Positions 16,558 through 50,726 of a stretch of DNA of 64,000 bases are shown piece by piece. Under the pieces are notes generated by a model. That model was not told the DNA's origin, ran no database searches, and saw only the letters and a list, made by a program, of their open reading frames with translations. The stretch is from Desulfovibrionaceae bacterium (GTDB taxonomy: Bacteria > Desulfobacterota > Desulfovibrionia > Desulfovibrionales > Desulfovibrionaceae). The position numbers and the translations under genes were made by a program. Location: assembly GCA_963674665.2 (NCBI GenBank), contig CAXXPL010000011.1:80567-144566 (forward strand), in the 5' to 3' direction. Numbering within the stretch: the stretch's first letter is position 1; each line of letters begins with the position of its first letter.

Positions 16558-16565
16558 GGCAAGAT

Positions 16566-17138: not shown

Positions 17139-17472
17139 TTACCGCCCTTGCATGGCGTCGATAACCGTTTCTATGGCATCCAGGATACGTCTCTTGGGGT
17201 TGTCCTTGCAAATGGATCCAACGACTTCCCCCAGCCCTTCCCATCGATCCGGAGTAAAGGTGTCGATATTGCTCTTCCCGACGTAGTATTCGTCGACCCA
17301 TACCAGGATGATGCCCACCACGGCCTTGTCCCTTGCCACGAGTTCGCCGCAGGTGAGTTCGCGGATGTCCACGGTGAGGGGAAGGGGAGCCGCCGGAGAG
17401 GGAATCCGCCATGGCCGGGGCAACGAAAAGGAGCACGAGAGCGATCTTGACGTACTGAGGGATTGTTCGCAT
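17139..17472 (-). pseudogene. HdeA/HdeB-like periplasmic protein, reading frame broken just after the signal peptide
   Basis: ATG at 17472 gives signal peptide MRTIPQYVKIALVLLFVAPAMADSLSGG, then junk. A different frame (shift within CCCCTTCCCCTC, about 17385-17400) gives LPLTVDIRELTCGELVARDKAVVGIILVWVDEYYVGKSNIDTFTPDRWEGLGEVVGSICKDNPKRRILDAIETVIDAMQGR ending at 17139. Confidence 0.5.
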
Positions 17473-18413
17473 GGGATACCCCCGGTGGATGCTTTAAAAA
17501 TGTTTCGGCGCAAGGTTCATGTGTTGAAAAAAGTGCCATAGTGTATCCTGAAACAAAGATGGTCGCAATGAGTTGTGGAGGAGGGCATGCTCTCATGCCA
17601 TTGGCGTAAGGGATGGTGTTTTGAAATTGAAGTTGATGTTGTGCAAAATGCTGACAAGTTGCGCACCAATGATTTGGTAATGGTATATGTCCAGAGGACG
17701 CTGAAAAGAATATAGATCTGTAACTGGCTGATGATGGTAATGGATCTGGATGAATCTTTGTGAGGCGGCAACTACGAATATCAGGAAAAGAAGTCCCGAA
17801 ATGGAGTGGAAATACTTGAATTGCTGCTGAACCAGTGGACAGAAAGCAGCTTATCTGGGATAATAAATATTAAAAAGAACTGTGTTGACAAGGGGATCAA
17901 CCGCCAGCCGTGTTGCCTGCGGCAGCAATGACAGACACGCGGGAGAATGAAATGACGGTAACGGGATCAGTGGTCGCAAGTTTCGTGACACGTAACGATG
18001 ACATGCCCGGAACAATTCGAAACATTCGTGTTGCCATCGGTGATCAGGGGCGGGAGGGGGTCACGTCCAAAACAGTTCGCCTCGAGGCCTGTGGAACTCT
18101 TTTACTGCAGGGGTTTCAAATCCTCGGGAAACGGAGGCGGGGCCGACTTGACCTGCGGAGTGCGGGAATGAACTCCTGACATCGTTTCCCCGGAGATGAC
18201 AGCATTGTATTTCTCAGGGTCCTTGGGCGGTACTGCCGCGCCACTATTCGTTCCAACTTCCCGCCCCACAGGAAGTAGTCTCTTCGATGCAAAATTGACA
18301 AAAGCGTTTTCTTGACAAGGCCGTTACAAGGGGGCATCCAATCGGGGTTTTCTTTTGCCATTGGGGGAGGCCCGATCGTTGACCTTGGCCATTCACTTTA
18401 CCTAGGAGGAAGC

Positions 18414-23659: not shown

Positions 23660-25738
23660 TTGGCGGCTGAATTGACAATCCACGAGAAATTCCACTCGTT
23701 CGCTGCGCTGGGGCTGGGGGGACTCCTGCTGCTGGCCTCGCTGTTTCTTATCGAGGCGCGGGTTCTTGCTGAGCAGCCGACCCATGGCTCGGTGACCCTG
23801 CAGCTCAAATGGTTCAACCAGTTCCAGTTCGCGGGATTCTACGCGGCAAAGGAGAAGGGCTTCTACAGGGACGCGGGGCTGGATGTCGAAATCGTGTCCC
23901 ACAGGCCGGGCATGGACAACCTTCAGGCCGTGGCCTCGGGCCAGGCCGACTTCGGCGTGTCCGGCCCGGAGCTTCTGCTCGAGCGCATGAACGGAGCGCC
24001 CCTTGTGGCCCTGGCCGTCGTCATGCAGCACTCCGCCTATGCCATCATGGCCAAGGCGGACAGCGGTATCGCCACTCCCCACGACCTCTTAGGCAAGCGG
24101 ATTATGCTCACGAAAAAAGGTGGCGCGGACATCTGGGCCATGCTGCGCAACGAGGGGGTCCGGGAAGAGCAACTGATCTTTCCCAATATCTCCTGGGACC
24201 TGGCCAATCTCGTCAACGGCGATGTGGACGCCATTGTCACCTATGTCACGGACATGCCCCCTCAAATGCGGCACCTGGGCGTTCCCTTCACCCTGATCCT
24301 GCCCCGCACCTATGGCGTGGACTTCTACGGCGACACCATCTTCACCAGCAAATCCTTTCTCCGGAAAAGGCCGGGCGCGGTGGCCGCCTTTCGCGCGGCC
24401 AGCCTGCGCGGATGGGAGTACGCCATGGCCCATCCCGGGGAGATGGTTCAGCTCATCATGGACAAGTACCCCACGAACAGGACAAGGGCTCAGCTCGAGT
24501 ACGAGTCGGCCACGCTACGGCATTTGATCATGCCGGACATAGTGCCTGTGGGGCACATGAACTCCGGGCGCTGGGAATACATGGCCGAGACCTTCGCGGC
24601 CCTGGCCATGGCCCCGCCGATCAGAAACCTGGACGACTTCATCTATAATCCCGGGGAAGCCAGCTCCGGCGGGGGGTGGCTGTTGGGGACCCTGGGCATT
24701 GCCGTGGCGGCCCTTGCCCTTGCCGGGTGGCTCCTGTTCTTCAACGCCAGACTAAAGAGCGCGGTTCGCAAGCGTACCCTGGAGCTGTCCACCCTGAACC
24801 TCGAGCTCACCCGTGAGATCGGGGTGCGCGAGGAAGTGGAGTTCGCACTGCGCGACAGCGAGGAGACAATCCGGGCCATGAGCAACGCCTCCCTCGATCC
24901 CATGGTGATGATCGAGGACGACGGCACGGTATCTTTCTGGAACAGCGCGGCGGAGCGCGTGTTCGGGTATACCGAGGACGAGGCCATGGGGCGGGACGTG
25001 CATGCTCTCATAGCCCCTGACGAGTTCCGGGAGCGGATATCCATCGGTATGCAGAGTTTTTCCGTGACCGGCCAGGGCAGGGTGGTGGGCAAGACCCTGG
25101 AGTTGATCGGCAGACGCAAGGATGGCGGCGCCATCCCCGTGGAGATCGCGGTGGCGGCCTTCCGTCACGGCGGCAGTTGGCGCGCGGTGGGCGTGATCCG
25201 GGACATCACGGCCCGCAAGCGTACCGAGGAAAAGCTGCGGGAGATGGCCATTACGGACAGCCTCACAGGAGTCTCCAACCGCAGGCACTTCATGTACCAG
25301 GCAACCCAGGAAGTGGAGCGCTCCCGCCGCTATGACAGGATGTTCTCCCTGATCATGCTGGACATCGACCATTTCAAGTCCATCAACGACACCCACGGAC
25401 ACGACACCGGGGACAAGGTCCTGGTCACCTTTGTGGAGCTCGTGCGCATGGAACTGCGGCAGAACGACCTGCTGGCGCGTTTTGGCGGCGAGGAGTTCGT
25501 GGCCCTGCTCCCGGAGACCGATCTCGAAGGAGGGGTGCACGTGGCGGAGCGCATCCGCAAGCGCGTGGAAGGGGTACGCCTCGGGGATGGGGAAAAGTCA
25601 CTGAGCATGACGGTGAGCGCCGGGGTGGCGGTATATTCAGAGGAGTACGCGGAACTGGAGCCGCTGATCAAGAAGGCGGACCAGGCCCTGTACAGGGCAA
25701 AGGAAGGCGGCAGGAACCGCGTGGAGGCGGCGGAGTAG
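23660..25738 (+). CDS. Diguanylate cyclase with periplasmic NMT1/SsuA-like solute-binding domain, TM, PAS and GGDEF
   Basis: 692 aa with a TTG start as given by the track. The periplasmic part is LQLKWFNQFQFAGFYAAKEKGFY. TM is WLLGTLGIAVAALALAGWLLFF. PAS is FWNSAAERVFGY. GGDEF is active (RFGGEEFVALLP), with DIDHFKSINDTHGH. Confidence 0.85.
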   Translation: MAAELTIHEKFHSFAALGLGGLLLLASLFLIEARVLAEQPTHGSVTLQLKWFNQFQFAGFYAAKEKGFYRDAGLDVEIVSHRPGMDNLQAVASGQADFGVSGPELLLERMNGAPLVALAVVMQHSAYAIMAKADSGIATPHDLLGKRIMLTKKGGADIWAMLRNEGVREEQLIFPNISWDLANLVNGDVDAIVTYVTDMPPQMRHLGVPFTLILPRTYGVDFYGDTIFTSKSFLRKRPGAVAAFRAASLRGWEYAMAHPGEMVQLIMDKYPTNRTRAQLEYESATLRHLIMPDIVPVGHMNSGRWEYMAETFAALAMAPPIRNLDDFIYNPGEASSGGGWLLGTLGIAVAALALAGWLLFFNARLKSAVRKRTLELSTLNLELTREIGVREEVEFALRDSEETIRAMSNASLDPMVMIEDDGTVSFWNSAAERVFGYTEDEAMGRDVHALIAPDEFRERISIGMQSFSVTGQGRVVGKTLELIGRRKDGGAIPVEIAVAAFRHGGSWRAVGVIRDITARKRTEEKLREMAITDSLTGVSNRRHFMYQATQEVERSRRYDRMFSLIMLDIDHFKSINDTHGHDTGDKVLVTFVELVRMELRQNDLLARFGGEEFVALLPETDLEGGVHVAERIRKRVEGVRLGDGEKSLSMTVSAGVAVYSEEYAELEPLIKKADQALYRAKEGGRNRVEAAE

Positions 25739-25767: not shown

Positions 25768-26463
25768 CTACAAGGACGTGGGGCAGGCGTCCCCCAGATA
25801 GGTGTTCACTTCCACTACATACTCCCGGATCTGCTCCTGCAGACTGTCCGGTACGTCCTGAAACTGCATCCCCAGAAATGCCTTGCCCTTGTCCACGGTC
25901 ACCGTGCGTATGGCGCCCTTAAGCTTTTCCGGTCCATTGTGCCGCCCCAGAATCTGAAACTCGCATTCCATCTCCGTGTCCGGTACAATGCCCAGTTGCT
26001 CAACCGCCTCATGGGGCAGGCCGATGCGGCACCCCCCGTTGGAGAGATTCAGGATGTGCCCGCCCAGGCGCTCCTCGCCGATCACCAGGGACGCGGGGAG
26101 AAAGCAGTCCACCCGGTTCTCCTTGCGCAGGCTGAAGACCTCCACGAAATCCGGATAGTCAAGGAACAGCAACGGCTGCGGCTTGTAGCTCAGTCCCTGG
26201 ATGGCGCACTCGAAGCCGCAGACCTCGCCGGTGCAGCTGAGGTACCGGACAATGACGAGCTTGCCGCTGTAGAGGTGGTCGCGGAGCTCCAGCTTGGAGG
26301 GCAGGCGCAGAATGACGCAACGCCCCGCTTCCCAGCCCACGAAGCCGGTCTTGAAGCGCTCCCCCACGCCCTGGGGCTCCACCAGCGCGATGTCGCCCAC
26401 GTTTACGGACATGCTGGTCTGCGCCCTGCGCTCGATTTTTCGCGCATCAACCCTGGTGGCCAC
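25768..26463 (-). CDS. YcgR-like PilZ protein (PilZN + PilZ)
   Basis: 231 aa. LRKENRVD (RxxxR) and NLSNGGCRI (D/NxSxxG) lie in the C-terminal half. The N-terminal beta-rich domain resembles YcgR. Confidence 0.7.
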   Translation of the reverse strand: MATRVDARKIERRAQTSMSVNVGDIALVEPQGVGERFKTGFVGWEAGRCVILRLPSKLELRDHLYSGKLVIVRYLSCTGEVCGFECAIQGLSYKPQPLLFLDYPDFVEVFSLRKENRVDCFLPASLVIGEERLGGHILNLSNGGCRIGLPHEAVEQLGIVPDTEMECEFQILGRHNGPEKLKGAIRTVTVDKGKAFLGMQFQDVPDSLQEQIREYVVEVNTYLGDACPTSL

Positions 26464-27344: not shown

Positions 27345-27420
27345 GGGCGGGTAGCTCAGCTGGGAGAGCATCGGCCTTACAAGCCGAGGGTCACAGGTTC
27401 GAGCCCTGTTCCGCCCACCA
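27345..27420 (+). tRNA. tRNA-Val (anticodon TAC)
   Basis: Hand-folded cloverleaf. Acceptor is GGGCGGG/TCCGCCC, D arm GCTC-AGCTGGGA-GAGC, anticodon arm TCGGC-CTTACAA-GCCGA and T arm ACAGG-TTCGAGC-CCTGT. CCA is encoded. Confidence 0.9.
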
Positions 27421-27481: not shown

Positions 27482-27558
<77 letters not shown>

Positions 27559-27567
27559 CAAAAGAAA

Positions 27568-27600
27568 GGGGTCGCATCGCAAGATGTGACCCCAATTTCT
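27568..27600 (+). terminator. Hairpin after tRNA-Asp (weak terminator)
   Basis: GGGGTCGCAT-cgcaag-ATGTGACCCC (one mismatch) followed by AATTTCTT. Confidence 0.45.
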
Positions 27601-27648
27601 TAATTACATCACGCTAGTAAGCCACGCACAGGGCTTTACTATACCTAA

Positions 27649-27678
27649 GGGCTGGGAGAGTACTCCTGGCCCTTTTTT
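27649..27678 (+). terminator. Rho-independent terminator
   Basis: 10-bp stem GGGCTGGGAG / CTCCTGGCCC (two G-U pairs), 4-nt loop, then TTTTTT. Confidence 0.65.
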
Positions 27679-28438
27679 CGTTGGGCACAAAACGCGGACA
27701 CAAAGAACATATGGAGTTGGTACTTCAGGTAGTTATGACCGGAAATTTGGTGTTGCAGTATGAAATCATTGAAGCTATTGTTTAAAAAATACTATTGGAG
27801 ACTACTGAATGCATTTCTTGTTAGGTATAATTCCTGGAGTTGTAGCTTGCTAGCTTTTATACAGCGAAAGTACATATGTATTCTACTTTGCTGTTCTCGC
27901 ATCCATTTTGTACATCATATCTTCAATGACTGTCATTATAGACGCTATTCGTATTGTTAGCGAAAGAACAAATATGGAAAAATTACTCAAGAGCTTCAAC
28001 GGTGTTGATCTAGCATCATCAGTCAGTATAAGTGCACTGATTGCCAATTGTACAATGCCGACGTAGACAACGAACAACGGGTCAGATCGACATCTGAAAA
28101 ACTTGTTTCGCCCCCTAGCTTGCCAAAGGCCGACGAAATAATGAGGAGCAGAAGCACGGATTCCCATCTGTGCCAGGCACCATGAGCAAGAGGCTAGATA
28201 AATAGTAGCATCTGACTTCTCGCATAACAAAGTCGTTGACCCCAGAGCAGGCCATATCTGGGGACTACTTGTATGGGCCTGTACAAATTTAGTATAATTG
28301 GTTAATTAGTATGACCATTCAGGTTAAAATAGACCGAAGGAATTGTGACGTAATGCACCCTAACGACACATGAAAATAAATTTACTATGACTGCCTTGCT
28401 AATTTCTCCTATTGCTCTCTCATGAGAATATCTTCCCT

Positions 28439-29668
28439 ATGACAACTTATCAGATAACTACAAACGCAGATTGGGGAGACTATGTAAAACCTAAATTCTT
28501 GCGTTATACACCAATACACCGCTGGCTCGTCTTCCCGCATAGCTTCACGCCCGAATTAGTTGATGACCTCATTAATAAATGGGGATTAAATAGTTCTGAC
28601 AAAATCCTAGACCCATTTGTTGGAGCTGGAACGACCCTGATTGCTGCACAAAAAGCGGGAATCCCCTCTCAAGGCTATGATCTTTCGCCGTTCGCCGTAT
28701 TGGCCTCAAACGTAAAAACAGCAAACTATATAGCAAATGACTTGTGTAAGGATTGGGATACGATCAAAAGGCGCTTAAGCACTCCTTTTAAAGGCCCCCT
28801 AAAAAAAGAATACCCTGATTTAATCCGCAAAGCTTTTGCACCCAACATTCTACTTGCCCTTGAAGAGACACGGTCTCAAATCATCCAACGAACCTCAAAT
28901 AATCAGTCTAGGGCATTCTTTTTACTAGCCCTACTTGCTATCATTCCTGAAATAAGCAGGGCGGAGGCAACTGGCGGTTGGCTGAAATGGGTGGAAAAAG
29001 AACCATCCATAGATGACCTTAAAACTGCGTTCACTGACCAAGTTATGCTTATGCTTAATGACGTTCAAACTCTAAATGACAAGGAACTGGCTAAGGCGAG
29101 CTCTCAGATTACGGACGCGAGGTACCTGCCTGAAACTGACCCAACTTACTCTGCTATTATAACATCTCCACCGTATCCTAATAGGCATGACTACACACGT
29201 GTGTTCGGGGTGGAATTGATGTTTGAGTTTTTAGACTGGGGCCAAACCCGATCATTAAGATATCAAAGCATCCATTCTCATCCAGAGGCAAAGCCTATGC
29301 GCCCAGAGGTACAGGGCTATGTTCCTCCAATGGGATTACAAAAAAGTCTTGAAAAAATCGAAAAGTCGGCTCCAAAACGTATCGTCAAAATGCTAAAAGG
29401 CTATTTTCTAGATTTATTTTGCTGCTTTAAAGAAATGAACAGAGTAGCACTAAACGACGCAAAGATTGCGGTCGTACTTGGAAATGCTCAGTATTATGGT
29501 GAGCCTTTTCATGTAGACGAATATGCTGCCGAAATAGGCGAACAAGTAGGATTGGTGTGCCAAAAAATCGTAACTGCCCGAATTAGAGGAAACAGTGCTC
29601 AGCAAATGAAAAAATACGGTCGCAATCCATCTCGTGAAAGTGTGGTTATTTTTAACAATAAAAGCTGA
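28439..29668 (+). CDS. DNA methyltransferase (N6-adenine or N4-cytosine; SPPY type) with motif I preceding motif IV
   Basis: AdoMet motif I is LDPFVGAGTTLIAAQKAGIPSQGYDLSPFA near the N-terminus. Catalytic motif IV is IITSPPYPNRHDY about 185 aa later. The ATG at 28439 is preferred over the TTG at 28412. Confidence 0.8.
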   Translation: MTTYQITTNADWGDYVKPKFLRYTPIHRWLVFPHSFTPELVDDLINKWGLNSSDKILDPFVGAGTTLIAAQKAGIPSQGYDLSPFAVLASNVKTANYIANDLCKDWDTIKRRLSTPFKGPLKKEYPDLIRKAFAPNILLALEETRSQIIQRTSNNQSRAFFLLALLAIIPEISRAEATGGWLKWVEKEPSIDDLKTAFTDQVMLMLNDVQTLNDKELAKASSQITDARYLPETDPTYSAIITSPPYPNRHDYTRVFGVELMFEFLDWGQTRSLRYQSIHSHPEAKPMRPEVQGYVPPMGLQKSLEKIEKSAPKRIVKMLKGYFLDLFCCFKEMNRVALNDAKIAVVLGNAQYYGEPFHVDEYAAEIGEQVGLVCQKIVTARIRGNSAQQMKKYGRNPSRESVVIFNNKS

Positions 29669-29678
29669 AAAAAAAATT

Positions 29679-30065
29679 TTAAAGAGAAACTATCTTCTTA
29701 GAAATCATAATTGCCATATCAATAGCTCGTTTATCATAACTTAGCTTAGCGACCTCAGCTAGTTGCACTGTTATGTCAAATACAACAGAATCATTTTTTA
29801 AAGCGTGCTCATCTGCCGATGAAACGAACGCCCAAAAATTTTTCGCAAACTCAAACAACTCATCTGGCGTATTGTTTGACTTTGAAATCTCAAGAGCATC
29901 CTTAAGGTTATCATTATTTGCGTACGTATTGAGCAGATCATCTGAATTCCCTTGCAAGTACTGTCTCAGCTGAGACCATTTTGCATGAGTGTCAGGCGCA
30001 GATACGTTCACATTATGGGCCATAAACTTCCCCACAAAACCAGTACGAGTTTTAAGTTGTGCCAT
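29679..30065 (-). CDS. Hypothetical small protein (gene 5 of the island operon)
   Basis: A strong AGGAGG RBS lies 6 nt upstream of the ATG at 30065 (MAQLKTRTGFVGKF). The ATG sits inside the last codons of the upstream gene. The protein has 128 aa and no recognisable motif. Confidence 0.55.
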   Translation of the reverse strand: MAQLKTRTGFVGKFMAHNVNVSAPDTHAKWSQLRQYLQGNSDDLLNTYANNDNLKDALEISKSNNTPDELFEFAKNFWAFVSSADEHALKNDSVVFDITVQLAEVAKLSYDKRAIDMAIMISKKIVSL

Positions 30066-30840
30066 CTTTATCCTCCTGCGGGCGTTTAGCCTGCATCTTC
30101 GCAATAATCTCTTCTAATGATTGAATGTCATCCTTCAAACTTGGCGCGTCCTTCATTTCTTCCGCGATTTGAGAAAGCAACTGTACCCCAATAACCTTTG
30201 CGAGGTCCATACCGATTTCCACCTTATGTGCCCCAGGCTGAAGGCTGCTCTCTTTGTATCGTTTATAGGACTCTCCAAGAGCATTGCCCTTTTCTCCATT
30301 AACATCAATAGCTTGTAATACGCATTTCCTTGCAAACTCCCAAACATTACTATCATCAACGTTATTCATGATCTCGCTGACTAAAGGCCTAAGTTTAGTA
30401 TTTCGTATTATACCATACTGATGGTAAAGAACCGCATGAATCTTTTGGAAAAGGATCTGCAAAACTATTGATACTTTTTTATCAGCCTCACTCTGATCCG
30501 GACGATAGGAAGTTATGAGTGCAAAACCTACGCCTCCAATTAGGACTGCTAATAGATATGGGTGATCGCTAATTGAAAGTGACAAAATGTGTATTTCAAA
30601 AGTTTCTAAAACCTTGAAGGCTATGACAGCCAATGTGCCGTTGTAAACAGCGTACATATGGCAGGGCCACGACCTAAGAACTACCATCGGCTTGTCGGTA
30701 AAATCATTTATAAATAAGACTAAGCCGACAAGGCCTCCAATAAAAAAGGCAAGGCAGGGAGCAAGGAATGCTTGTACCATAGGGGCGTATACAAATGCCT
30801 GAGTGTCGGCCAAGACAGATGTAAACCAAGTGTTCATCAT
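30052..30840 (-). CDS. Hypothetical membrane protein (three or more N-terminal TM helices + soluble C-terminal domain; gene 4 of the island operon)
   Basis: 262 aa. TM segments are FLAPCLAFFIGGLVGLVLFI, MYAVYNGTLAVIAFKVL and YLLAVLIGGVGFALITSY. A GAGGG RBS is present. Confidence 0.6.
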   Translation of the reverse strand: MMNTWFTSVLADTQAFVYAPMVQAFLAPCLAFFIGGLVGLVLFINDFTDKPMVVLRSWPCHMYAVYNGTLAVIAFKVLETFEIHILSLSISDHPYLLAVLIGGVGFALITSYRPDQSEADKKVSIVLQILFQKIHAVLYHQYGIIRNTKLRPLVSEIMNNVDDSNVWEFARKCVLQAIDVNGEKGNALGESYKRYKESSLQPGAHKVEIGMDLAKVIGVQLLSQIAEEMKDAPSLKDDIQSLEEIIAKMQAKRPQEDKDGTT

Positions 30841-30880
30841 ACCCTCAAATTAGTTTGCTGCTTTCATTATACTAATCATT

Positions 30881-33136
30881 CTACTTTTGTGTTAATCGTT
30901 CAACTTCATAATCATTGCCTACTAAAGATGTAGAAAAAATTAATCGCCCTTTATACTTAGCATTTAACTTTTTATTGTAGGAAGTATCAGGCTCATTGCA
31001 GCGGAAAAAGCGTAGTTGGCCAATTCGGTAACCAGGGAAAAGTCGAATAGGATTTGGACCTGCATTATATATCTCAAAAGTTATCGCTCCATGGAATCCA
31101 GGATCTATTAAATTTGCAGTCATATGGACCTGCACTCCCAATCTGGCAAAACTACTTCGTCCTTCTATTTGTGCTGCAACACTGTTTGGGAACCCAAAAT
31201 ACTCCATCGTATGGGCCAACACGAACTGACCAGGCGCTAAAACAATTCCTGTCTTAAAATCAAGGTCTACAATAGACGAATTAGTCAAAACATTTTGAAC
31301 AGATTCTGGATTCGTAAAATCAATCACACCACTTTGGTTTGGTTGGTAAGTTTGAAAAGTCGGTCCAAGTCGAATATCAAGAGAAGCTGAACCAAGTTGG
31401 GTCTTCAAATCAATCAACGGAATTACTTTTAGCTCATCATCTTCGAGTAGTTTCTTAATTTCCCTATCCACAAGAACAGCAGGGATATATATAGAATTTT
31501 CTTCACATTTTTCTGTGTTACTTCGTACTGGCTCCTGGCTTTCTATATCGGTATTCTTGGGCTTAAGCAAAGAAACCCATTCGCTTATTTGAAGAGATCG
31601 AAGAACAGCTTGATTAAACCTTTCAAAATATGGAGCTATATTTTCTTCAAACACTTTCCATTGCTCTTTATCCTGACTATTATGCAGTACACCAATGTGG
31701 CTAAAAAACTCATTCATCACTTCATCGCACAACGCCGTATCATGAGAAACCCAGGCAGCCAGCATTATGTCATATATAGATGTTTCTACCTCTTTAGATA
31801 TATTTTCTTCTAATGAAATAGACGGAATAGGGTATCCCCCATTCAACCTGTCCACAAGCCGTTTTAAAATCTTATTGTCAAATAACTGAGCAGCCGCTTT
31901 TAGCTTTTTCACATGCTGTTTTACATTCTCCGTGCCTTTGTCATCCATCTTGAAATGATCATTAAAGAAGGATGCAAACCACATTGCTATTTCGTATGCA
32001 TCATCAAGCACCTTCTCGTTTTCATGCTTAAGCAAGTCTGACAAGGAAAAGTTCAATGGAGATACATCGTATTCAAGTGGGTAATCAAACTGCCATTGGT
32101 GATTTTCAAATATATGTTCGAGAACTAATAGACGCAAATAAAATGAAGGGTGCGTAGATGTTCCGATGTCCCGATGCCAATTTCTTTGAAGAACGAACGC
32201 GTTACGTTGAGCAAAGAGTATCGCTGGACCTGTAGCAAAATAGGCATATATATCGCACCAACATTCAGTTAACCAAGAACCTAAAACATCTTTTTTATCA
32301 GTGTTCTCTTTCGCTACTTCATTAATTCTTGAGAGTTGTCTAATAAAAGCCTTATGATATTCGTTTCGATATGGATCTTTAAAAAAAGCATCTACAATAT
32401 TTTTGTGTTCTAACAATGCCCACTTCATCACCTGATGCCCAACTTCATGGGCTAACACTGGCCAAGACAGAGGGTTTTGAGTTTCTTCTCGTGGTATGCT
32501 AATATGATATGACTCGTCATTTTCCTGGGTTAGCCCTGCGTACGCATCTGAATACACATTTCGCAAAGTTGGAATTAAGACCATGTTTTCGTATTTTTTT
32601 AACGGGTGATTCTCATAGGTAACCGTTCCGCAGTCAACACCCGAATACAGCACAAACTTTGTTTCATTCGATATTTCGCTAACTTCGTTAGAATTCTCAT
32701 TTTCAGCACTCCCCTGCTTCGATTCGCCACTCTGATCTGCAATTCCCTCTCTATTGAAAATTCTCAAAAATCTATATAGCTCTATAAGGATGTCTGGTTT
32801 AGGTAAAATAACCAACTCATCTGACAACAGAATTACTGATTCGTACAAGCTTAGCAGTTCAGTATAGAGCTTTTTTTTCTCAGAATCATCAACACACGAC
32901 TCGTATGAAGACAGCGAATAAATGAGCGCGCTAAAGATCTCCCGCAAACTCCTAATAAAATGTTTATTTTTATTTTTATGGCGGGAGTTTATATTTTTAT
33001 GCCATGTGGAGGCTGTAGACTGAAGCTGGTCAAAAAGGACCGAAATGCGTTCAAGTATTACAAATACCAGATTATAAAGAAAAGGATCATTCTTTAACAA
33101 ATGAATTCGGTTAAAAGTCATAGTCGCCACCTTCAA
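30881..33136 (-). CDS. Fusion protein: N-terminal HExxH metallopeptidase-like region + C-terminal complete dCTP deaminase (Dcd) domain (gene 3 of the island operon)
   Basis: HEVGH is encoded at 32435-32449. Residues about 553-735 parallel E. coli Dcd along its whole length. DREIKKLLEDDELKVIP matches DRDIEAWLDEGRLSINP, and SLDIRLG matches VDVRLG. GRSSFARLGVQVHMTANLIDPGFHGAITFEIYN matches [33 protein letters not shown], and the catalytic Glu is retained. The probable ATG start is at 33121; the track start at 33136 is TTG. Confidence 0.85.
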   Translation of the reverse strand: MKVATMTFNRIHLLKNDPFLYNLVFVILERISVLFDQLQSTASTWHKNINSRHKNKNKHFIRSLREIFSALIYSLSSYESCVDDSEKKKLYTELLSLYESVILLSDELVILPKPDILIELYRFLRIFNREGIADQSGESKQGSAENENSNEVSEISNETKFVLYSGVDCGTVTYENHPLKKYENMVLIPTLRNVYSDAYAGLTQENDESYHISIPREETQNPLSWPVLAHEVGHQVMKWALLEHKNIVDAFFKDPYRNEYHKAFIRQLSRINEVAKENTDKKDVLGSWLTECWCDIYAYFATGPAILFAQRNAFVLQRNWHRDIGTSTHPSFYLRLLVLEHIFENHQWQFDYPLEYDVSPLNFSLSDLLKHENEKVLDDAYEIAMWFASFFNDHFKMDDKGTENVKQHVKKLKAAAQLFDNKILKRLVDRLNGGYPIPSISLEENISKEVETSIYDIMLAAWVSHDTALCDEVMNEFFSHIGVLHNSQDKEQWKVFEENIAPYFERFNQAVLRSLQISEWVSLLKPKNTDIESQEPVRSNTEKCEENSIYIPAVLVDREIKKLLEDDELKVIPLIDLKTQLGSASLDIRLGPTFQTYQPNQSGVIDFTNPESVQNVLTNSSIVDLDFKTGIVLAPGQFVLAHTMEYFGFPNSVAAQIEGRSSFARLGVQVHMTANLIDPGFHGAITFEIYNAGPNPIRLFPGYRIGQLRFFRCNEPDTSYNKKLNAKYKGRLIFSTSLVGNDYEVERLTQK

Positions 33137-33491
33137 TAATTAAAGTTATTTTATATTGAATATAAAATATATTTTTTAACTCATCGATGGTTTTGACAGA
33201 ATCTATACCCAGTGCTGTTTTTTTGGTGAGGTAATTTACTAAATGATTTGGTGTAACAGTCCGATACCCATGAATAATCTTCAGTTCTAGCTCTCCTGAT
33301 TCATGTTTGACCATCCCGTTTACAACCGCTTCGAGAATGGATGCCAATGGGTACGAGAACATGCACCAACGAAGGTCAAGGGTCACCTGTTGAGGCAATT
33401 CATAACTATTAATTTCCGAGAGCAACTTATCAAGGTGTGGTCGACTAGTCGGACGACGATAGCCCATTTCTCTGAAACTTATTATCATCAC
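33111..33491 (-). CDS. Small STAS-like (DUF4325-like) protein (gene 2 of the island operon)
   Basis: 126 aa. VTLDLRWCMFSYPLASILEAVVNGMV resembles the v.lDf.gv...s.sfldE strand-helix of STAS-like domains. Its start (GTGATG context, 33486-33491) overlaps the stop of the upstream gene. Confidence 0.5.
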   Translation of the reverse strand: MMIISFREMGYRRPTSRPHLDKLLSEINSYELPQQVTLDLRWCMFSYPLASILEAVVNGMVKHESGELELKIIHGYRTVTPNHLVNYLTKKTALGIDSVKTIDELKNIFYIQYKITLIIEGGDYDF

Positions 33492-34546
33492 AACTGTTCC
33501 TCACATTCCAAAAAGTAATAAAATGGGGTTTTTCCAACAACTCTAAAACTTGATCGCCACACATCGTTGTACGAGGGAGGGTCTTGGTCGATTGGACTAA
33601 GAGAACTTAAGACAAGACGACTATACTGATCAAATACAGATATGTTAGTACCTATAGCAAGGCAATTGTTAACTATACTCGACATGCCGCAGCCGTAATT
33701 CTCCTCAGAATCGCTACCTGAAACCTCATCTGTCAAAGCGAGCTTATAACCATCTGCAAAGTTGCCTTTATTTTTTTTTGATGGATATGGAGCAAAAAAT
33801 TTTTCAGAAATATGCTGATATATACCTGGTCCTAGGTCTCCAACAAGAAGATTGATCTTTGTTTTAGTCTCTGTTTCGATAACATCCAACCCTAAAAGTC
33901 CATCAGCATTCGCATGATCTGCAATATTTTTAACAATTTCTTCTAGGACATGGGTTAGCTGATTACCCTTGTCTTGGTTACGCACAAAAACAGAATCAAA
34001 AACGGGATCAACATGATCAAAGAGCTTTTGAAGAATATCCCTTCTTCTTTCAGTGTATTGACTAAAATCAAGATGACATAGGGGCATAGAGTTAACCCTT
34101 CTTAAAAATGACGCATGAACTACTGGCTCTAAACGATTTTGGCAGTACTCATCGGCAAGCTCTTTTGAAAGACGAGTTTTTATAGCTTCAAAAAAACCTA
34201 GCTGTGAACACAACTTCATCATTTTGGGATCATCGTGCTCAACAACCCGTGTAACGAACGGTTCTTTATTGTCAGCATCTAGCTGCTTTTTCATATTTTT
34301 AATAATCGATCCTTGAAATAAACTGAGCTGTCCCCCAGTTGTTTCCTTCTCTTCCAACCTTTCGGGAAAACGAAGGTTAAACAGGTAGTGTAAGTTCAAT
34401 GCTGAAGCTGCAAGGCCGCAAGACTCAAAACCTTCGCACTGACTTAAATCCAAAATACAGGTATTTTTGATATCAGCCCAAGAATTCGCAAGAGGAGAAC
34501 AACCCATCTGTTCAGGCCACAAAGTCAACCGTGTGTCACGTGTCAT
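33488..34546 (-). CDS. GHKL-type ATPase (RsbW/SpoIIAB-like HATPase fold) with N-terminal STAS-like region (gene 1 of the island operon)
   Basis: 352 aa. N box is LEEIVKNIADHA, G1 is VGDLGPGI and G2 is YGCGMSSI. No H-box/DHp is seen. The N-terminus ILDLSQCEGFESCGLAASALNL is STAS-like. A GGAGG RBS is present. Confidence 0.65.
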   Translation of the reverse strand: MTRDTRLTLWPEQMGCSPLANSWADIKNTCILDLSQCEGFESCGLAASALNLHYLFNLRFPERLEEKETTGGQLSLFQGSIIKNMKKQLDADNKEPFVTRVVEHDDPKMMKLCSQLGFFEAIKTRLSKELADEYCQNRLEPVVHASFLRRVNSMPLCHLDFSQYTERRRDILQKLFDHVDPVFDSVFVRNQDKGNQLTHVLEEIVKNIADHANADGLLGLDVIETETKTKINLLVGDLGPGIYQHISEKFFAPYPSKKNKGNFADGYKLALTDEVSGSDSEENYGCGMSSIVNNCLAIGTNISVFDQYSRLVLSSLSPIDQDPPSYNDVWRSSFRVVGKTPFYYFLECEEQL

Positions 34547-35066
34547 TTTGGAGTCCCTCCTCTTCAGTGGACACGTTTTCTATGGTTCAACTCTATCAAT
34601 ATTAGAAATTTGTCTGTCTGTATTTTTTGTAGTTAGAGGGAAAAGAAATTACCTTTTCAGGCAGTTAAAAAAAGTTCAATTATTCCACAGGAAATCTCCT
34701 GGATCGTACCTGATCAGCCAAGTTCATACCTTACCTTGATCGTCAGAATCATCATTTCAAAATATTGCGGTATATTCATAAATATCTCTGCTTATGAGTC
34801 TGGTTGCAGGATATACTTTTAACTATTGAATGTGAAGATTTGAACCAGAAAAAAGGCCAGAACTCATGTCCTGACCCTTCATAGTGGTTTTATGGCTCCT
34901 GCCCTGCTACTTCAGCTTCAAGGTCGTCTCCAGGGCATCACGGCTTCCTTCTCTCCCAGGATATTCAAACCATCAGGCAACGGGCTTTCCCGTCTTATAC
35001 AAATCGGTTGCGATGAGGCGAGGTATCACATGACAGCTGGAGCGTTTCACACTGGGCATACAACGG

Positions 35067-41374: not shown

Positions 41375-42652
41375 TTAATGCAGTAGATTCATGGGTACGG
41401 TGATCAACTGCGGGAACAGGATAAAGAGAATGAGAACCGCGATCTCGACGAGCAGGAACGGGAACACGCCCCGTACCACCTGGCCGAGCTTCAAACCGCT
41501 CACCGAGCACCCGACATAGAGCACGGTGCCCACAGGCGGCGTGAGCAGGCCTATGCAGAGGTTCAGCACCATGATGATGGCGAAGTAGTAGGGGTCGATG
41601 CCCGCGGCCCGCACCAGCGGGAAAACCACTGGCGCGAAGATGAGGATGATGGGGGTCAGGTCCATCACCATGGCGATGAGCAGGAACAGTATGTTGAGCG
41701 TGATCAGCAGCAGGGTGGGGTAGTCCGTGAGGCCGTGGAACAGGGCCATGATCTGCTGGGGCACCTGGGCGATGGTGATGAGCCAGCCGATGGCGTAGGC
41801 CGTGGCCACGATGAACATGACCGATGCCGAGGCGCGCACCGCGCCGAACAGGACATCGGGCAGGATGCGCCAGGGCATCTCCTTGTGCACGAACTTGGCG
41901 ATGATGAAGGCGTAGACAGCCGCAACAGCTCCGCCTTCCGTGGGAGTGAACAATCCCATGCGAATACCCACGATGATGATGATCGGCATCATCATGGCGG
42001 GGATGGCGTCCAGAATGGTTGGCCAAACCTGGTCCCTGGCGATCTTCTTCTTGTGCGTGTAACCGTCCCTCTTGGCCACGAAAAACCAGGTGACCATGAG
42101 CGCCATGCCCAGGAGCAGGCCGGGAAACACGCCCGCCATGAAGAGCTTTCCAATGGACAGCTCAACGGTGACGCCAAGCACTATCAACGGCAGGCTCGGC
42201 GGGATGATCGGGGCGGTCAGGGAGCTGGCGCAGACGATGCCGGTGGCCCTGTCCGCGCTGTAGCCGGCCGTGACCATGAGCGGGATAAGCACGCTGCCCA
42301 GGGCAGAGACATCGGCAATGGCCACGCCTGAAAGTCCGGCGAAAAGGATGCTGGCGAAAATGGTCACATAGCCAAGACCACCCCTGAATCGGCCCACGAT
42401 CATTTCAGCGAAATTGATGAGCCGCTTGGAGATGCCGCCGTGGTGCATGATCTCGCCGGCAAGGATGAAGAAGGGAATGGCGATCAGGATGTAGTTGTCC
42501 GTTCCCGTGACCATCTGCTGGGCCAGGATCATGGGGTCGTACATGGATATCCAGTACATCAATACGAGTGCGCACAGCATCAGGACAATGGCGATGGGAA
42601 TCCCGGTGCACAGCAGGACAAAAAGCGAGACGAGAAAAACAAAAAGTTCCAT
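41375..42652 (-). CDS. dctM: TRAP transporter large permease
   Basis: Start MELFVFLVSLFVLLCTGIPIAIVL at 42652, 3 nt after the dctQ stop. The 425-aa polytopic protein carries typical DctM segments (PFFILAGEIM, GGLGYVTIFASILFAGLSGV). Confidence 0.9.
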   Translation of the reverse strand: MELFVFLVSLFVLLCTGIPIAIVLMLCALVLMYWISMYDPMILAQQMVTGTDNYILIAIPFFILAGEIMHHGGISKRLINFAEMIVGRFRGGLGYVTIFASILFAGLSGVAIADVSALGSVLIPLMVTAGYSADRATGIVCASSLTAPIIPPSLPLIVLGVTVELSIGKLFMAGVFPGLLLGMALMVTWFFVAKRDGYTHKKKIARDQVWPTILDAIPAMMMPIIIIVGIRMGLFTPTEGGAVAAVYAFIIAKFVHKEMPWRILPDVLFGAVRASASVMFIVATAYAIGWLITIAQVPQQIMALFHGLTDYPTLLLITLNILFLLIAMVMDLTPIILIFAPVVFPLVRAAGIDPYYFAIIMVLNLCIGLLTPPVGTVLYVGCSVSGLKLGQVVRGVFPFLLVEIAVLILFILFPQLITVPMNLLH

Positions 42653-42654
42653 GC

Positions 42655-43131
42655 CTATCCCCTGCTGAATTTTTGCTTGAGCAGTTGGTAAATCTCGATG
42701 ATCGTCATGCAACCCATGGTAATTCCGGCGAAAACAACCGAGAATATGATCCACGCAAATGGTATCTTTATCATCTGCCCAAGGGAGTGCATATTGAATG
42801 ACATGTAGATCAGGCCACCATGAATCATGACATAGAGGGCATATATTATGACGCAATCAGAAATGAGTTTGAGATAGAATGCGTATTTTTCTGAAAGCTT
42901 TTCTACCACAACAGTGACGCTTATGTGCGAATTTGTCTTGTAAACAGCGACAATCCCGAGAAAGGAGATCCAAATGAACAGGTATCTCAACATCTCCTCG
43001 GATGCGGCCATGCCATAATTGAATCCATAGCGAAGCACCGTGTTGACAAACACTGTAAGAGTCATGGTCGCTAAAATTGCAGCGCAAAGATACTTGTAGG
43101 CTATACCAATAATTTCAGCTGCGCGATTCAT
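42655..43131 (-). CDS. dctQ: TRAP transporter small permease
   Basis: 158 aa, four TM helices, located between dctP and dctM. Confidence 0.85.
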   Translation of the reverse strand: MNRAAEIIGIAYKYLCAAILATMTLTVFVNTVLRYGFNYGMAASEEMLRYLFIWISFLGIVAVYKTNSHISVTVVVEKLSEKYAFYLKLISDCVIIYALYVMIHGGLIYMSFNMHSLGQMIKIPFAWIIFSVVFAGITMGCMTIIEIYQLLKQKFSRG

Positions 43132-43273
43132 AAAAAACTCCTGTGGATGAAATCGTCCACTATTAATCCATTACTTTACAACATTTCATGCAGAGTCTTT
43201 GTTAAATGAAATTTGTCGTTCTTTTGCGTTCAGCAGGGCAGGAGTGTTTCTCCTGCCCTGCATCGATGACGTG

Positions 43274-44266
43274 CTATCTGGGAAGCTCTTCCATTTTCTT
43301 GATGATCTCACGGGAGTGAGGAATGGTTTCGAAGTACCATTCGTAGAATTCCTTGAGGGAATCCTTCATCTTTTGACGGAAAGCGGGGTCGGGCACAGTG
43401 ATCTCAAGTCCCTTTTCCAGAAGGAACTTCTTGGAGGCCTCATCCTGCTCCTCGGAGATCTTCCAGTTGTAGTCGATGGCCTTTTTGACGTTCTCGTCGA
43501 AGATCTTCTGGAGGTTTGCGGGCATGTCGTCATAGAAGCCCTTGTTCACGAGCCAGGGGTTGGCCACGAACATGTGGCGGGACTCCAGCATGTACTTCTG
43601 CACCTCCCACCAGCCAGTGGTCTGAACCGTGGTGTAGGGGTTGTCCTGGCCGTCGACAACGCCGGTTTCCAGGGCGTTGTAGATCTCGCCCATGGGCATC
43701 ATGACGGTGGCCACGCCAAAGGCCTTGAACATCTTCACGTAGATTTCGTTTGTGGGGACGCGCAGTTTGGCCTTGGCCAGATCTTCCGGGGTCTTCACGG
43801 GCACGCTGGAGGAGATCTCGCGGAAGCCGTTGACGCTGTAACCCACGACCAGCACGCCGGTGTTCTTGGTATAGTCGCCGACGATCTCCTTGCCGATCTC
43901 TCCGGTGTAGGCGGCCTTGGCCTGTTTCCAGGTCTCGAACACGAAGGGCGGCTCAACAAGGGCCATCATGAGTTCGTCCTTCTTGATGAGCCCGCCGGCC
44001 ACGGCCATCTGAATGGTGCCGCGTTTAACCGAGTCGATGAAGGCCTCTTCGTTGCCCAACTGGTTGTTGGGGAAGATCTGCATGACGATTTCACCGTCAC
44101 TGTCCTTGGCCAGGTTGTCCTTCAGAAACAGCAACGACTTGTGCAGCGGATGGCTCTCAGCGAAATACGTGGCGACTTTGATGACGTGCTTTGCGGAAGC
44201 GACGGTCGCCATCATGCCGACCATGAGACATGCGGCCAGAAGGATAATCAGGGTGCGCTTTTTCAT
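43274..44266 (-). CDS. dctP: TRAP transporter substrate-binding protein
   Basis: A GAGGAGG RBS precedes the ATG at 44266 (MKKRTLIILLAACLMVGMMATVASA signal peptide). DctP-type body with LRVPTNEIYVKMFKAFGV and DGQDNP. Confidence 0.9.
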   Translation of the reverse strand: MKKRTLIILLAACLMVGMMATVASAKHVIKVATYFAESHPLHKSLLFLKDNLAKDSDGEIVMQIFPNNQLGNEEAFIDSVKRGTIQMAVAGGLIKKDELMMALVEPPFVFETWKQAKAAYTGEIGKEIVGDYTKNTGVLVVGYSVNGFREISSSVPVKTPEDLAKAKLRVPTNEIYVKMFKAFGVATVMMPMGEIYNALETGVVDGQDNPYTTVQTTGWWEVQKYMLESRHMFVANPWLVNKGFYDDMPANLQKIFDENVKKAIDYNWKISEEQDEASKKFLLEKGLEITVPDPAFRQKMKDSLKEFYEWYFETIPHSREIIKKMEELPR

Positions 44267-46530: not shown

Positions 46531-48030
46531 CTACAGGGTCACGCCGGTCTTGAAGATCCCCAACTGCCGGTCGTTCCTCTTCTCCGCCGCGGAGGGCGCC
46601 CCGTTGATGGTATTCACCATGGTGCGCAGCAGGTCGGCCAACACCTGGTCGTGATCCACCCCGCTATCGGCCAGCACCCCGGCGTCGAAATCTATCCATC
46701 GGGGTTTGAGCTGCGCCAGGTTGGAGTTGGATGAGATCTTGATGGTGGGAACGAACCCGCCAAGGGGCGTTCCCCGCCCTGTGGAGTACAGCACCAGATG
46801 GCTCCCCGCGGTACCCAGGGCCGTGGTGGCCACGAGGTCGTTGCCCGGGGAGTGCAGAAGGTTCAATCCGGTCTTGCTCACCCGTCCATCCACCTTGACC
46901 ACGTCCACGATCTTGGACTTGCCCGCTTTCCGGATGCAGCCCAGGGATTTCTCCTCCAGGGTGGTGATGCCCCCCGCGTGGTTGCCAGGAGAGGGGTTTT
47001 CGTAAATGGGCTGGTTGTGGGAGCTGTAGTAGTGCTTGTAGGCGTTGATCATCTCCACGGTGTGGGTGAAGATCTCCCGGTTTTCGCACTGGTTCATGAC
47101 CACCTGCTCGGCGCCGAACATTTCCGGCACCTCGGTGAGAACCGCCGTACCCCCGCGCTGCGTGACATAATCCGAGATCCGGCCGATGAGCGGGTTGGCG
47201 GTGATGCCGGAAAAGGCGTCCGAGCCGCCGCACTCCAGGCCGATGACCATGTCCTTCCACTCCCCGGGTTCACGCTTGTCCTGGCTGGCCTTGGCATACA
47301 GCCGGGTGAGCATGTCCACGCCCGCCTCGATCTCGTCCGGCACGGTCTGAGCCACCATGAACAGGAGCCGCTCCGGGTCGTAGTCTCTGGGCATGCTCTC
47401 CATCAATTGGTCCACCTGGTTGTTTTCGCACCCCAGCCCAAGGATGAGCACGCCTCCGGCATTGGGGTGCAGGGCCAGATTTTGCAGGATCGTCCTGGTT
47501 CGCTCGTGGTCGTCCCCCAGCTGGGAGCAGCCATAGGGGTGGGGGAAGCTGTACACGCCATCCACGCCTTCGCACGTGTTCGCGGCTTTGAAGGCGGCAA
47601 CGATGTTCTGGGCAGTGGCGTTCACGCAGGCCACCGTGGGGATGACCCACAGTTCGTTGCGAATGCCGATCTTGCCGGTGGATCTCCTGTAGATCCGCAA
47701 AGGAGGCTCCGCGTCCCAGGTGAAGGTGTCGGGAAAGGAATTGTCCGGGCTGTACACGTACTCCATGTGCTCCCGCAGCCCTGTCCGCACGTTGTGGGTA
47801 TGCACCCACTGCCCTTTCCGGATATCCGTTGTGGCCACGCCCATGGGGGCGCCGTATTTCAGGATCACCCCCCCCGCCTCGATGTCGCGCAGGGCGACCT
47901 TGTGCCCCTTGGGGATGGCATCGGAAACGTGAAAGGTCTCACCCGCGAGACTGACCTCGGCCCCTTGTTCCAGCGCGTTGAAGGTCAGGGCGACATTGTC
48001 GGCCGCATCGATTTGATATAGCGCGGTCAT
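46531..48030 (-). CDS. uxaA: Altronate dehydratase
   Basis: 499 aa, collinear with E. coli UxaA. Shared segments are GHKVAL, IYRR..G.IGIRNELWVIPTV.CVN, YGCSQLGDDH, HPNAGGVL.LGLGCENNQV, GLECGGSD..SGITANP, VLTEVPEMFGAEQ, QPIYENPSPGN.AGGITTLEEKSLGC, STGRGTP.GGFVPT.KI and a FKTGVTL C-terminus. Confidence 0.95.
   Translation of the reverse strand: MTALYQIDAADNVALTFNALEQGAEVSLAGETFHVSDAIPKGHKVALRDIEAGGVILKYGAPMGVATTDIRKGQWVHTHNVRTGLREHMEYVYSPDNSFPDTFTWDAEPPLRIYRRSTGKIGIRNELWVIPTVACVNATAQNIVAAFKAANTCEGVDGVYSFPHPYGCSQLGDDHERTRTILQNLALHPNAGGVLILGLGCENNQVDQLMESMPRDYDPERLLFMVAQTVPDEIEAGVDMLTRLYAKASQDKREPGEWKDMVIGLECGGSDAFSGITANPLIGRISDYVTQRGGTAVLTEVPEMFGAEQVVMNQCENREIFTHTVEMINAYKHYYSSHNQPIYENPSPGNHAGGITTLEEKSLGCIRKAGKSKIVDVVKVDGRVSKTGLNLLHSPGNDLVATTALGTAGSHLVLYSTGRGTPLGGFVPTIKISSNSNLAQLKPRWIDFDAGVLADSGVDHDQVLADLLRTMVNTINGAPSAAEKRNDRQLGIFKTGVTL

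Positions 48031-49811: not shown

Positions 49812-50726
<915 letters not shown>

Follow-up and report, generated by a model that had tools for sequence, protein, structure and literature searches.

Within a 64,000-nucleotide (nt) stretch of the genome of a Desulfovibrionaceae bacterium (assembly GCA_963674665.2, contig CAXXPL010000011.1, positions 80,567 to 144,566; hereafter the window), a gene that we call gene C encodes a zinc-peptidase-like module joined to a dCTP deaminase (Dcd) domain. Our favored interpretation, held with moderate confidence, is that gene C is the effector of a six-gene mobile anti-phage or anti-invader system that depletes deoxycytidine triphosphate (dCTP) under the control of a kinase and a peptidase. 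The open reading frame (ORF) lies on the reverse strand and was listed at 30881 to 33136 as a frame of 751 amino acids (aa) that opens at a TTG. The start is likely the ATG at 33121 (gene C, 30881 to 33121, 746 aa) rather than this TTG, because the ATG is preceded by the Shine-Dalgarno-like GAAGGTGG and because the public record holds a 746-aa product that starts there; this start leaves an overlap of 11 nt between gene C and the 3′ end of gene B, which lies upstream. Residue numbers of gene C are nevertheless counted here from TTG 33136. The original prediction, made from the sequence alone, had described this ORF as a peptidase-like region fused to a Dcd, and the fusion proved to be real and conserved: homologues of 718 to 757 aa share the architecture of the window protein. 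Hydrophobic segments are absent from gene C (maximum Kyte-Doolittle 19-mer score of 1.48), which indicates a soluble protein.

By its sequence, the C-terminal domain (residues 554 to 731; 30944 to 31477, reverse strand) is a complete dCTP deaminase of the dUTPase fold, with all catalytic residues kept, as identified from profile and structure-sequence matches. The Pfam model DCD (PF22769) matches residues 554 to 712 with an E value of 1.6e-42, and the NCBIfam model dCTP_deam (TIGR02274), whose curated cutoff is 92.8 bits, scores 165.5 bits over residues 554 to 730, whereas the dut models reach only 32 to 34 bits against cutoffs of ∼103. The domain therefore groups with the deaminases and not with the dUTPases. 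The best solved-structure match was Escherichia coli Dcd (1xs1; E value of 1.9e-28), with query residues 555 to 731 aligned on residues 3 to 182 of 193, which confirmed the alignment along the whole of E. coli Dcd that had previously been made by eye. The motif GRSSFARLG (31136 to 31162, reverse strand), H671, the IDPG motif, and the catalytic E688 (31073 to 31075, reverse strand), which lies within TFEIYN, pair with R110/S111/R115, H121, D128, and E138 of the E. coli enzyme. Across 15 homologues, G659-R660-S661-S662, R665, H671, D678, and E688 are unchanged, and the Ser/Arg/Glu catalytic set anticipated by the original prediction is thus intact.

The family also carries a conserved tail past the canonical end of Dcd (residues 732 to 751; nt 30881 to 30943), with conserved L732, S737, D742, and E744 (“DYEV/DYEY”). 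This DYE tail, which E. coli Dcd lacks, is common to the fused and the stand-alone Dcds of the family and is a candidate for a role in regulation or docking.

We then considered the region that precedes the Dcd domain. The single HEVGH of the original prediction was found exactly at nt 32435 to 32449 (reverse strand), where H230 and H234 are putative zinc ligands and E231 the putative catalytic Glu. The helix-like third-ligand region noted ∼55 aa later corresponds to ECWCD (E291...D295; 32252 to 32266, reverse strand), which begins 57 residues past HEVGH and has the form ExxxD; this motif would supply the third zinc ligand. A further motif, HPSFYLR (H329...R335; 32132 to 32152, reverse strand), has the form HPxxxxR. 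All three lie in a zincin-like catalytic core (residues 155 to 350; 32087 to 32674, reverse strand) in which AlphaFold2 (AF2) models place strands, the HExxH helix, and the Glu helix.

Could the HExxH be a chance motif, as the original prediction had allowed? Close homologues of gene C number 14 among 5.8 billion proteins, and all of them are ∼720 to 757 aa long with the same architecture, except one that is truncated at its N terminus. The HExxH is kept in all 13 that cover the site, and W288, L289, E291, C292, W293, C294, and D295 are unchanged among the close homologues. A profile of the N-terminal 548 residues recovered 493 proteins at an E value of ≤1e-3 among 1.84 billion representatives, with 66 clusters below 1e-30 that were mostly 700 to 767 aa in length; the same profile also found a distant group of stand-alone proteins of 430 to 490 aa. 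In a superfamily alignment of the window protein with 20 of these stand-alone relatives, at 15 to 20% identity, the residues P215, H230, E231, H234, E291, D295, G303, P304, P330, R335, I457, and W462 were invariant and H329 was nearly so. The resulting signature of the module is HExxH ... ExxxD ... GP ... HPxxxxR. Because the motif residues are unchanged in relatives of such low identity, the alignments indicate that the HExxH of gene C is not a chance motif, and they support a conserved gluzincin-type metal site formed by the HExxH and the ECWCD helix.

Which peptidases does this module resemble? The layout HExxH ... ExxxD ... HPxxxxR is that of M48 peptidases. AF2 models of the core reached a predicted local distance difference test score (pLDDT) of 75 and a predicted template modeling score (pTM) of 0.73 to 0.80 (0.73 for the model of residues 155 to 350). 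When the core was compared with the PDB by using Foldseek, the five best matches were all M48 CAAX proteases, the best being Ste24p (4il3; E value of 0.028, probability of 0.94, template modeling [TM] score of 0.33); the ZMPSTE24 structures 5syt and 6bh8 were also among the five. In a fold search of a viral library, “Peptidase M48” and BepA entries recurred among the weak top matches (E values of 0.6 to 8). The PDB sequence of ZMPSTE24 reads H335ExxH339, E415xxxD419, and H459PxxxxR465, where the window protein has H230-H234, E291-D295, and H329-R335, so that the spacings inside the motifs are equal and the gaps between them are 76 and 44 residues in ZMPSTE24 versus 57 and 38 in the window protein. 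No Pfam or NCBIfam peptidase model matched gene C at E values up to 0.1, PDB sequence searches with the profiles A2 and A8 gave unrelated chance matches only, and a Foldseek search of the PDB with the 548-residue model of the whole module returned nothing below an E value of 0.9. Likewise, we found no family for the N-terminal module in Pfam, NCBIfam, PHROGs, or PADLOC. The module, at ∼550 aa, consists mostly of additional helical parts of unrecognized fold in the models, ∼350 residues beyond the core. Together, the weak fold matches and the motif layout suggest a module that is M48-like (Ste24/ZMPSTE24) and not a member of M48, since the TM score is only 0.33, there is no Pfam M48 match, the protein is soluble, and the module as a whole is unmatched. 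The original prediction had compared the region with ImmA/IrrE-like or MA-clan peptidases; the metal site is indeed conserved, but the motifs and the weak fold matches point to M48 rather than to ImmA/IrrE. Assignment to ImmA/IrrE (M78) or CapP is not supported by profiles either: gene C has no Pfam or PADLOC match to them, and the sole CapP match came from a distant relative (P0092; E value of 0.0034 over 45 residues).

The stand-alone peptidase relatives provide independent information on the pairing of the two domains. In 25 of 25 loci in which the gene downstream of the stand-alone peptidase (430 to 490 aa) could be read, that gene was a separate Dcd gene (∼205 to 225 aa). Neighbor clustering gave the order of this split operon as fam3 (STAS plus GHKL, ∼320 to 385 aa), fam1 (∼207 aa), fam4 (∼150 aa), peptidase, and Dcd, and a protein of ∼127 aa follows 3′ of the Dcd in five of the split loci. 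Typical split Dcds keep GRSTWGRxG, the His, DPGF, FELxN, and the AKY...DYEY tail, the last being shared by the split Dcd genes in L044 to L074. One split Dcd (L043, 2126 to 2794) is divergent, with GRSAWGRDG, Ala at the equivalent of His121, and His at the equivalent of Asp128 (IDPG to VHPG), although the catalytic Glu is kept; its substrate specificity may differ. The pairing of peptidase and Dcd is obligatory, fused in one clade and in neighboring genes in another, which is classical evidence for a functional pair.

In the fusion, the two parts are connected by a variable linker (residues 525 to 553; 31478 to 31564, reverse strand) that has a pLDDT of <50 and no conserved columns, and this linker is the gene boundary in the split relatives. 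The original prediction had proposed auto-activation by self-cleavage. This proposal gained no direct support, as the variable linker holds no conserved site; moreover, because peptidase and Dcd are separate proteins in 25 loci, cutting of the linker cannot be a general release mechanism. The linker of some homologues (P0002 to P0006; alignment columns ∼607 to 622) contains a C-x2-C-x2-C arrangement (e.g., FKCDECLNCD), where that of the window protein has one Cys.

Gene C is part of a cassette of six genes. Upstream on the reverse strand lie gene A (33488 to 34546; 352 aa), encoding a STAS-like plus GHKL (HATPase_c) kinase/ATPase that resembles CapK/VapK, and gene B (33111 to 33488; 125 aa), which is coupled to both A and C and occupies the position of VapS/CapS. 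Downstream on the same strand follow gene D (30052 to 30840), encoding a predicted membrane protein of 262 aa with hydrophobic segments at residues ∼19 to 48, 70 to 88, and 94 to 112 and a helical C-terminal part, and gene E (29679 to 30065), encoding a helical protein of 128 aa. Gene F (28439 to 29668, forward strand; alternative TTG start at 28412) is convergent with this operon and encodes a DNA methyltransferase (MTase). The stop codon of A runs into the start codon of B (TGATG), B and C have 11 nt in common, the 3′ end of D and the start of E share 14 nt, and Shine-Dalgarno-like sequences precede B, C, and E; as read from the sequence, these junctions show translational coupling. Searches of Pfam, NCBIfam, PHROGs, and PADLOC left B, D, and E without a family. 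The hypothesis that E is kin to fam5 or fam4 of the split clade was rejected, given hhalign probabilities of 0.2 to 0.3%.

Loci with this cassette were gathered by homologue look-ups, a genome scan, and jackhmmer. The same six families were found in 16 distinct loci of Desulfovibrionaceae, Desulfobacterales, Bacteroidota, Ignavibacteria, and one archaeal metagenome-assembled genome, with the proviso that locus L017 starts at a contig edge and so is without gene A. Gene B is kept in all cassettes. The MTase is present in every cassette as well, in a placement that varies (convergent at the 3′ side, codirectional at the 3′ side, or at the 5′ end). Gene F matches PADLOC MTase_II (E value of 2.1e-59) and Pfam N6_N4_Mtase, with motif I as FVGAGT and motif IV as TSPPY at 29165 to 29176. 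The cassette MTases come in two forms, one of ∼410 to 440 aa with motif I before motif IV and one of ∼275 to 297 aa that is of the classical beta class (PF01555; E value of 1.9e-52), and motif IV is TSPPY in every cassette MTase of both architectures (L001 to L019). TSPPY at motif IV favors N4-cytosine methylation, and gene F is thus probably an N4-methylcytosine (m4C)-forming enzyme. Both enzymes of the cassette, Dcd and the MTase, would then act on the N4 position of cytosine. Scans of A to E against Pfam, PADLOC, and NCBIfam found no nuclease, helicase, BREX, or DISARM component. The peptidase-Dcd family is absent from PADLOC 2.0, so that current annotation pipelines name it only “dCTP deaminase” or nothing.

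The regulatory genes link the cassette to a recently described group of immune switches. HATPase_c was detected in 12 of 14 gene A members. A joint gene A profile, built from both operon types and searched against the PDB, matched CheA/histidine kinases (E value of 4.6e-6) and SpoIIAB (E value of 0.012) in its C-terminal half (positions 225 to 313), while positions 3 to 85 matched the STAS proteins TM1442 (E value of 1.3e-3), SpoIIAA (6e-3), prestin, and MlaB (to 3e-2). The invariant GHKL residues of gene A are E203, N207, and H211 of the N box (EIVKNIADH; 33914 to 33940, reverse strand), D237xGxG241 of the G1 box (DLGPG), and G285xG287 of the G2 box (GxG). On these sequence features, gene A belongs with the STAS plus GHKL kinases of the CapK/VapK kind. 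It also matches PHROG phrog_3364 (unknown function; E value of 4.4e-16), which implies that such STAS plus GHKL proteins occur in phage genomes too. Experiments have shown that CapK/CapS and VapKSC are activated by DNA damage and control immune operons and an anti-phage toxin (PMC13373217). CapK responds to single-stranded DNA and phosphorylates the repressor CapS, which lifts repression of the immune operon that follows (Chambers et al., EMBO J 2026, PMC13373217). Phosphorylation of VapS frees the toxin, and VapKSC is toxin-antitoxin (TA)-like and protects against phage (PMC13373217). The paper and its datasets are silent on any operon with a deaminase or a peptidase (PMC13373217).

In the split clade, the fam1 profile matched Vibrio cholerae CapS (9z72) through a winged-helix part (E value of 8.8e-6) and Escherichia VapS (9z7o) through a STAS part (E value of 2e-5); the identities of both structures are given in the data statement of PMC13373217. 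The profile matches thus describe the split operons as CapK/CapS-like regulators ahead of a three-gene effector module. The order of the window operon is VapK-like, with A, the small protein B, and then the effector. For gene B itself, which had looked STAS-like by eye, no STAS similarity was detectable (hhalign probabilities of 3% against the N terminus of A, 4% against fam1, and 0.2% against fam4), and the gene B profile had no match in the PDB. The conserved partners of gene C (STAS plus GHKL kinase, small proteins, membrane protein, and MTase) suggest that its control lies at least in part with a kinase switch of the CapK/VapK type. The winged helix of the CapS-like protein of the split operons (e.g., L052, 7906 to 8538) is weakly similar to MecI/BlaI (1okr, E value of 0.0095; Pfam Penicillinase_R, E value of 0.036). 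In nature, MecI and BlaI are cut by the M56 zinc protease BlaR1/MecR1, and the likeness may hint, by analogy, at cleavage of the CapS-like repressor by the peptidase.

The cassette is confined to a 7.5-kb island (27600 to 35000) that holds these six genes only and has a GC content of 40% compared to 59.6% in the rest of the window. The island begins directly after tRNA-Val(TAC) (27345 to 27420) and tRNA-Asp(GTC) (27482 to 27558). Within the window we found no integrase and no convincing flanking direct repeat for the island, and a scan for promoters and terminators gave no signal above shuffled expectation. Other copies of the cassette adjoin integrases, the conjugative genes TraG, SLT, ArdC, and RadC, or Schlafen-like or HEPN genes. 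Among 10 sampled neighboring genes, four match PADLOC defense-system or candidate models (LmuB; PDC-S27, E value of 5e-204; mad8/HerA; and LmuA/DRT), a fifth encodes a C5 methylase that matches the DrmMII and Type II MTase models, and two more gave marginal matches only. We conclude that the cassette is a horizontally acquired, mobile defense-type island. Carriage of the cassette appears to have a price. Insertion sequence (IS) elements with transposase genes interrupt gene C in the Bacteroidota/Ignavibacteria copies L017 (2022 to 3100) and L018 (6552 to 8016), inside the peptidase module in the former and in the peptidase-Dcd linker in the latter, and gene A is broken by frameshifts into two ORFs in L009, L018, and L021. 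The repeated inactivation of C and A suggests a costly or toxic function. With IS transposase genes inside C in both, L017 and L018 were rejected as naturally split genes. A phage origin of the family was also rejected, as a scan of viral contigs gave one Dcd-only match.

Elsewhere in the window, further dips in GC content (51 to 54% compared to ∼60%) at 16001 to 18000, 42001 to 44000, 48001 to 50000, and 60001 to 62000 might mark other acquired segments. Upstream of the tRNA genes, we recognized by eye an ORF for a PAS/GGDEF-type diguanylate cyclase-like protein (23660 to 25738, forward strand) and one for a PilZ-like protein (25768 to 26463, reverse strand), both of which belong to the ordinary gene content of the host and have no relation to the cassette.

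How might such a system operate? In a resting cell, Dcd would be kept inactive by the attached peptidase module, by protein B, or by both. An infection or DNA damage signal (single-stranded DNA in the case of CapK/VapK) would activate kinase A, which would modify B and, by analogy with VapK-VapS-VapC, lead to release of the effector. The peptidase would then license Dcd by cutting an inhibitory partner or segment, for which B, fam4, and the DYE tail are candidates. Signal-activated zincins that cut a regulator (BlaR1 of M56, ImmA/IrrE, and CapP) are an established control principle. Active Dcd, presumably trimeric, would turn dCTP into deoxyuridine triphosphate (dUTP) or monophosphate (dUMP) and stop replication of invader and cell alike, and the MTase, probably m4C-forming, would mark self DNA so that the system spares its host. 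Deamination of dCTP is a proven anti-phage strategy, carried out in that case by an unrelated enzyme (Tal et al.). In a methylation-gated variant of this scheme, which we consider quite unlikely as it stands, the TSPPY MTase would mark host DNA with N4-methylcytosine, and A would fire only on unmethylated foreign single-stranded DNA, after which B would be modified and the peptidase would license Dcd. The proteins D and E would perhaps assist A at the membrane, where phage DNA enters.

Several observations weigh against the proposal of a kinase- and peptidase-controlled, dCTP-depleting defense system. The affinity to M48 is weak, with neither a Pfam match nor a PDB sequence match to accompany the Foldseek result. 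Gene B has no detectable STAS similarity, and its candidate Ser/Thr position 51 is missing from some of the 15 members, so that in the window clade the analogy with VapS comes down to position and size. The split clade has neither the MTase nor D or E, so that methylation is no inherent part of the core formed by peptidase and Dcd. In the cassette we identified no reader of methylation and no nuclease, and apart from the MTase, no component matches a PADLOC model. The scan of viral contigs yielded nothing beyond the single Dcd-only match. Finally, both the nucleotide on which Dcd acts (dCTP or another) and the product that it forms (dUTP or dUMP) are assigned by homology.

Are there other explanations for this combination of genes? 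One that partly overlaps with the defense interpretation, and that we regard as unlikely, is a stress-response or addiction (TA-like) module of a mobile element, in which damage or loss of the element would trigger dCTP depletion by Dcd and growth arrest, with the MTase acting in a postsegregational or epigenetic circuit. Kinases of the CapK/VapK type answer DNA damage in general and VapKSC is itself TA-like (PMC13373217), the cassette is carried on integrative and conjugative elements or other integrase-bearing elements, the IS-inactivated copies suggest toxicity, and a solitary MTase without a nuclease resembles the logic of addiction. However, some of the neighbors match PADLOC defense-system models, a labile antitoxin is still only hypothetical, and VapKSC also protects against phage, which makes both roles compatible. 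A second explanation concerns the module rather than the whole cassette. The HExxH module may be a nonproteolytic, zincin-derived regulatory or scaffold domain that steers oligomerization of Dcd or binds a ligand, peptide, or DNA, with allosteric or phosphorylation control, a possibility to which we give little weight. It accommodates the lack of a significant sequence or fold match to any characterized peptidase, the extra helices of unknown fold that make up most of the ∼550 aa, the linker without a conserved cleavage site, and the separate peptidase and Dcd proteins of the split clade. On the other hand, the expected catalytic residues are kept at 15 to 20% identity (H329 nearly so) where inactive derivatives usually lose them, and M48 proteases are the consistent best fold matches.

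The remaining explanations place Dcd in nucleotide metabolism. In the first of these, which is highly unlikely in our view, the cassette would be a nucleotide or DNA modification pathway of a mobile element, with Dcd supplying dUTP or dUMP and the MTase altering DNA chemistry. Phages use Dcd homologues for base replacement, and in the window clade Dcd strictly co-occurs with a TSPPY (probably N4-cytosine) MTase. Yet no locus contains genes for a thymidylate-synthase-like enzyme, kinase, glycosyltransferase, or polymerase of such a pathway, the split clade does without the MTase, the family is essentially absent from viral contigs, and the kinase/STAS regulators suggest an inducible response. 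The possibility that gene C is simply an unusual housekeeping dCTP deaminase for dTTP synthesis is hardly credible, although its Dcd domain scores above the equivalog cutoff and there is no other Dcd or dUTPase ORF within the 64-kb window. The gene lies in a low-GC island beside tRNA genes, its distribution is patchy across phyla, with the 14 close homologues among 5.8 billion proteins, and IS-disrupted copies exist. The conserved fusion always occurs within the six-gene cassette, in agreement with the original prediction that it is not the cellular housekeeping enzyme.

How does the proposed dCTP-depleting system compare with those already described? The Dcd domain of gene C and E. coli-type Dcd (1xs1; TIGR02274, PF22769) share the same fold, catalytic set, and C-terminal AKY lid and align end to end. 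However, the housekeeping enzyme is a stand-alone, chromosomal protein of ∼190 aa, whereas the Dcd described here is fused or adjacent to a ∼550-aa peptidase module, bears the DYE tail, and is part of an island-borne cassette. The defensive dCTP deaminase of Tal et al. and Hsueh et al. (AvcD) resembles gene C in the predicted outcome, an infection-triggered conversion of dCTP to deoxyuridine nucleotides. The Tal-type/AvcD enzyme is encoded by a single gene and combines an N-terminal kinase-like domain with a zinc cytidine-deaminase domain, in contrast to the unrelated dUTPase-type fold of the Dcd in gene C, and it lacks the peptidase, GHKL kinase, membrane protein, and MTase partners found in our cassette. 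Consistent with this difference, the PADLOC dCTPdeaminase model had no match to gene C. As in CapK/CapS and VapK-VapS-VapC, a STAS plus GHKL protein comes first in the operon, with a small protein second and the effector third; the effector here is a peptidase-Dcd pair, compared to CBASS, Bub, or VapC in those systems, and the window clade differs further in that B is not detectably STAS and that three extra genes (D, E, and the MTase) are present.

The peptidase module and the MTase invite similar comparisons. With M48 (Ste24p/ZMPSTE24, HtpX, and BepA) the module shares the succession of HExxH, 57 to 76 residues, ExxxD, 38 to 44 residues, and HPxxxxR, but M48 members are embedded in or anchored to membranes, whereas gene C encodes a soluble protein with ∼350 extra residues and no Pfam M48 match. 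Restriction-modification (R-M), BREX, DISARM, and MADS systems likewise have an obligatory DNA MTase in a multigene, island-borne cassette. Unlike these systems, the cassette described here has no nuclease, helicase, PglZ, or BrxC-type part, A to E match none of their PADLOC models, and the predicted effector targets the nucleotide pool where R-M-like effectors target DNA. Our literature search turned up no account of a defense system built on a Dcd-fold or peptidase-linked dCTP deaminase, and the Tal-type enzyme is the sole entry for dCTP deaminase defense in a 2026 review. Nucleotide-depletion immunity and CapK/VapK-controlled immune operons are therefore known kinds; the pair of an M48-like peptidase and Dcd and the six-gene, MTase-linked architecture are new. 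The family is also rare (∼66 clusters at 50% identity among 1.84 billion representatives).

If our interpretation of gene C as a dCTP-depleting effector is correct, dCTP starvation would have arisen in bacterial immunity on at least two occasions, here from the fold of a housekeeping Dcd, and the known means of controlling a metabolic effector would come to include a zinc peptidase of the M48-like type and a kinase switch of the CapK/VapK type. A new class of effector would be added to the recently described CapK/CapS regulon. The window clade would couple an MTase, probably m4C-forming, to a nonnucleolytic effector, which makes methylation gating of an abortive response a testable idea. Should the methylation-gated variant hold, self/nonself discrimination in the style of R-M would be tied to a metabolic effector in place of a nuclease, by means of a Dcd-fold enzyme and a class of protease that is new to bacterial immunity.

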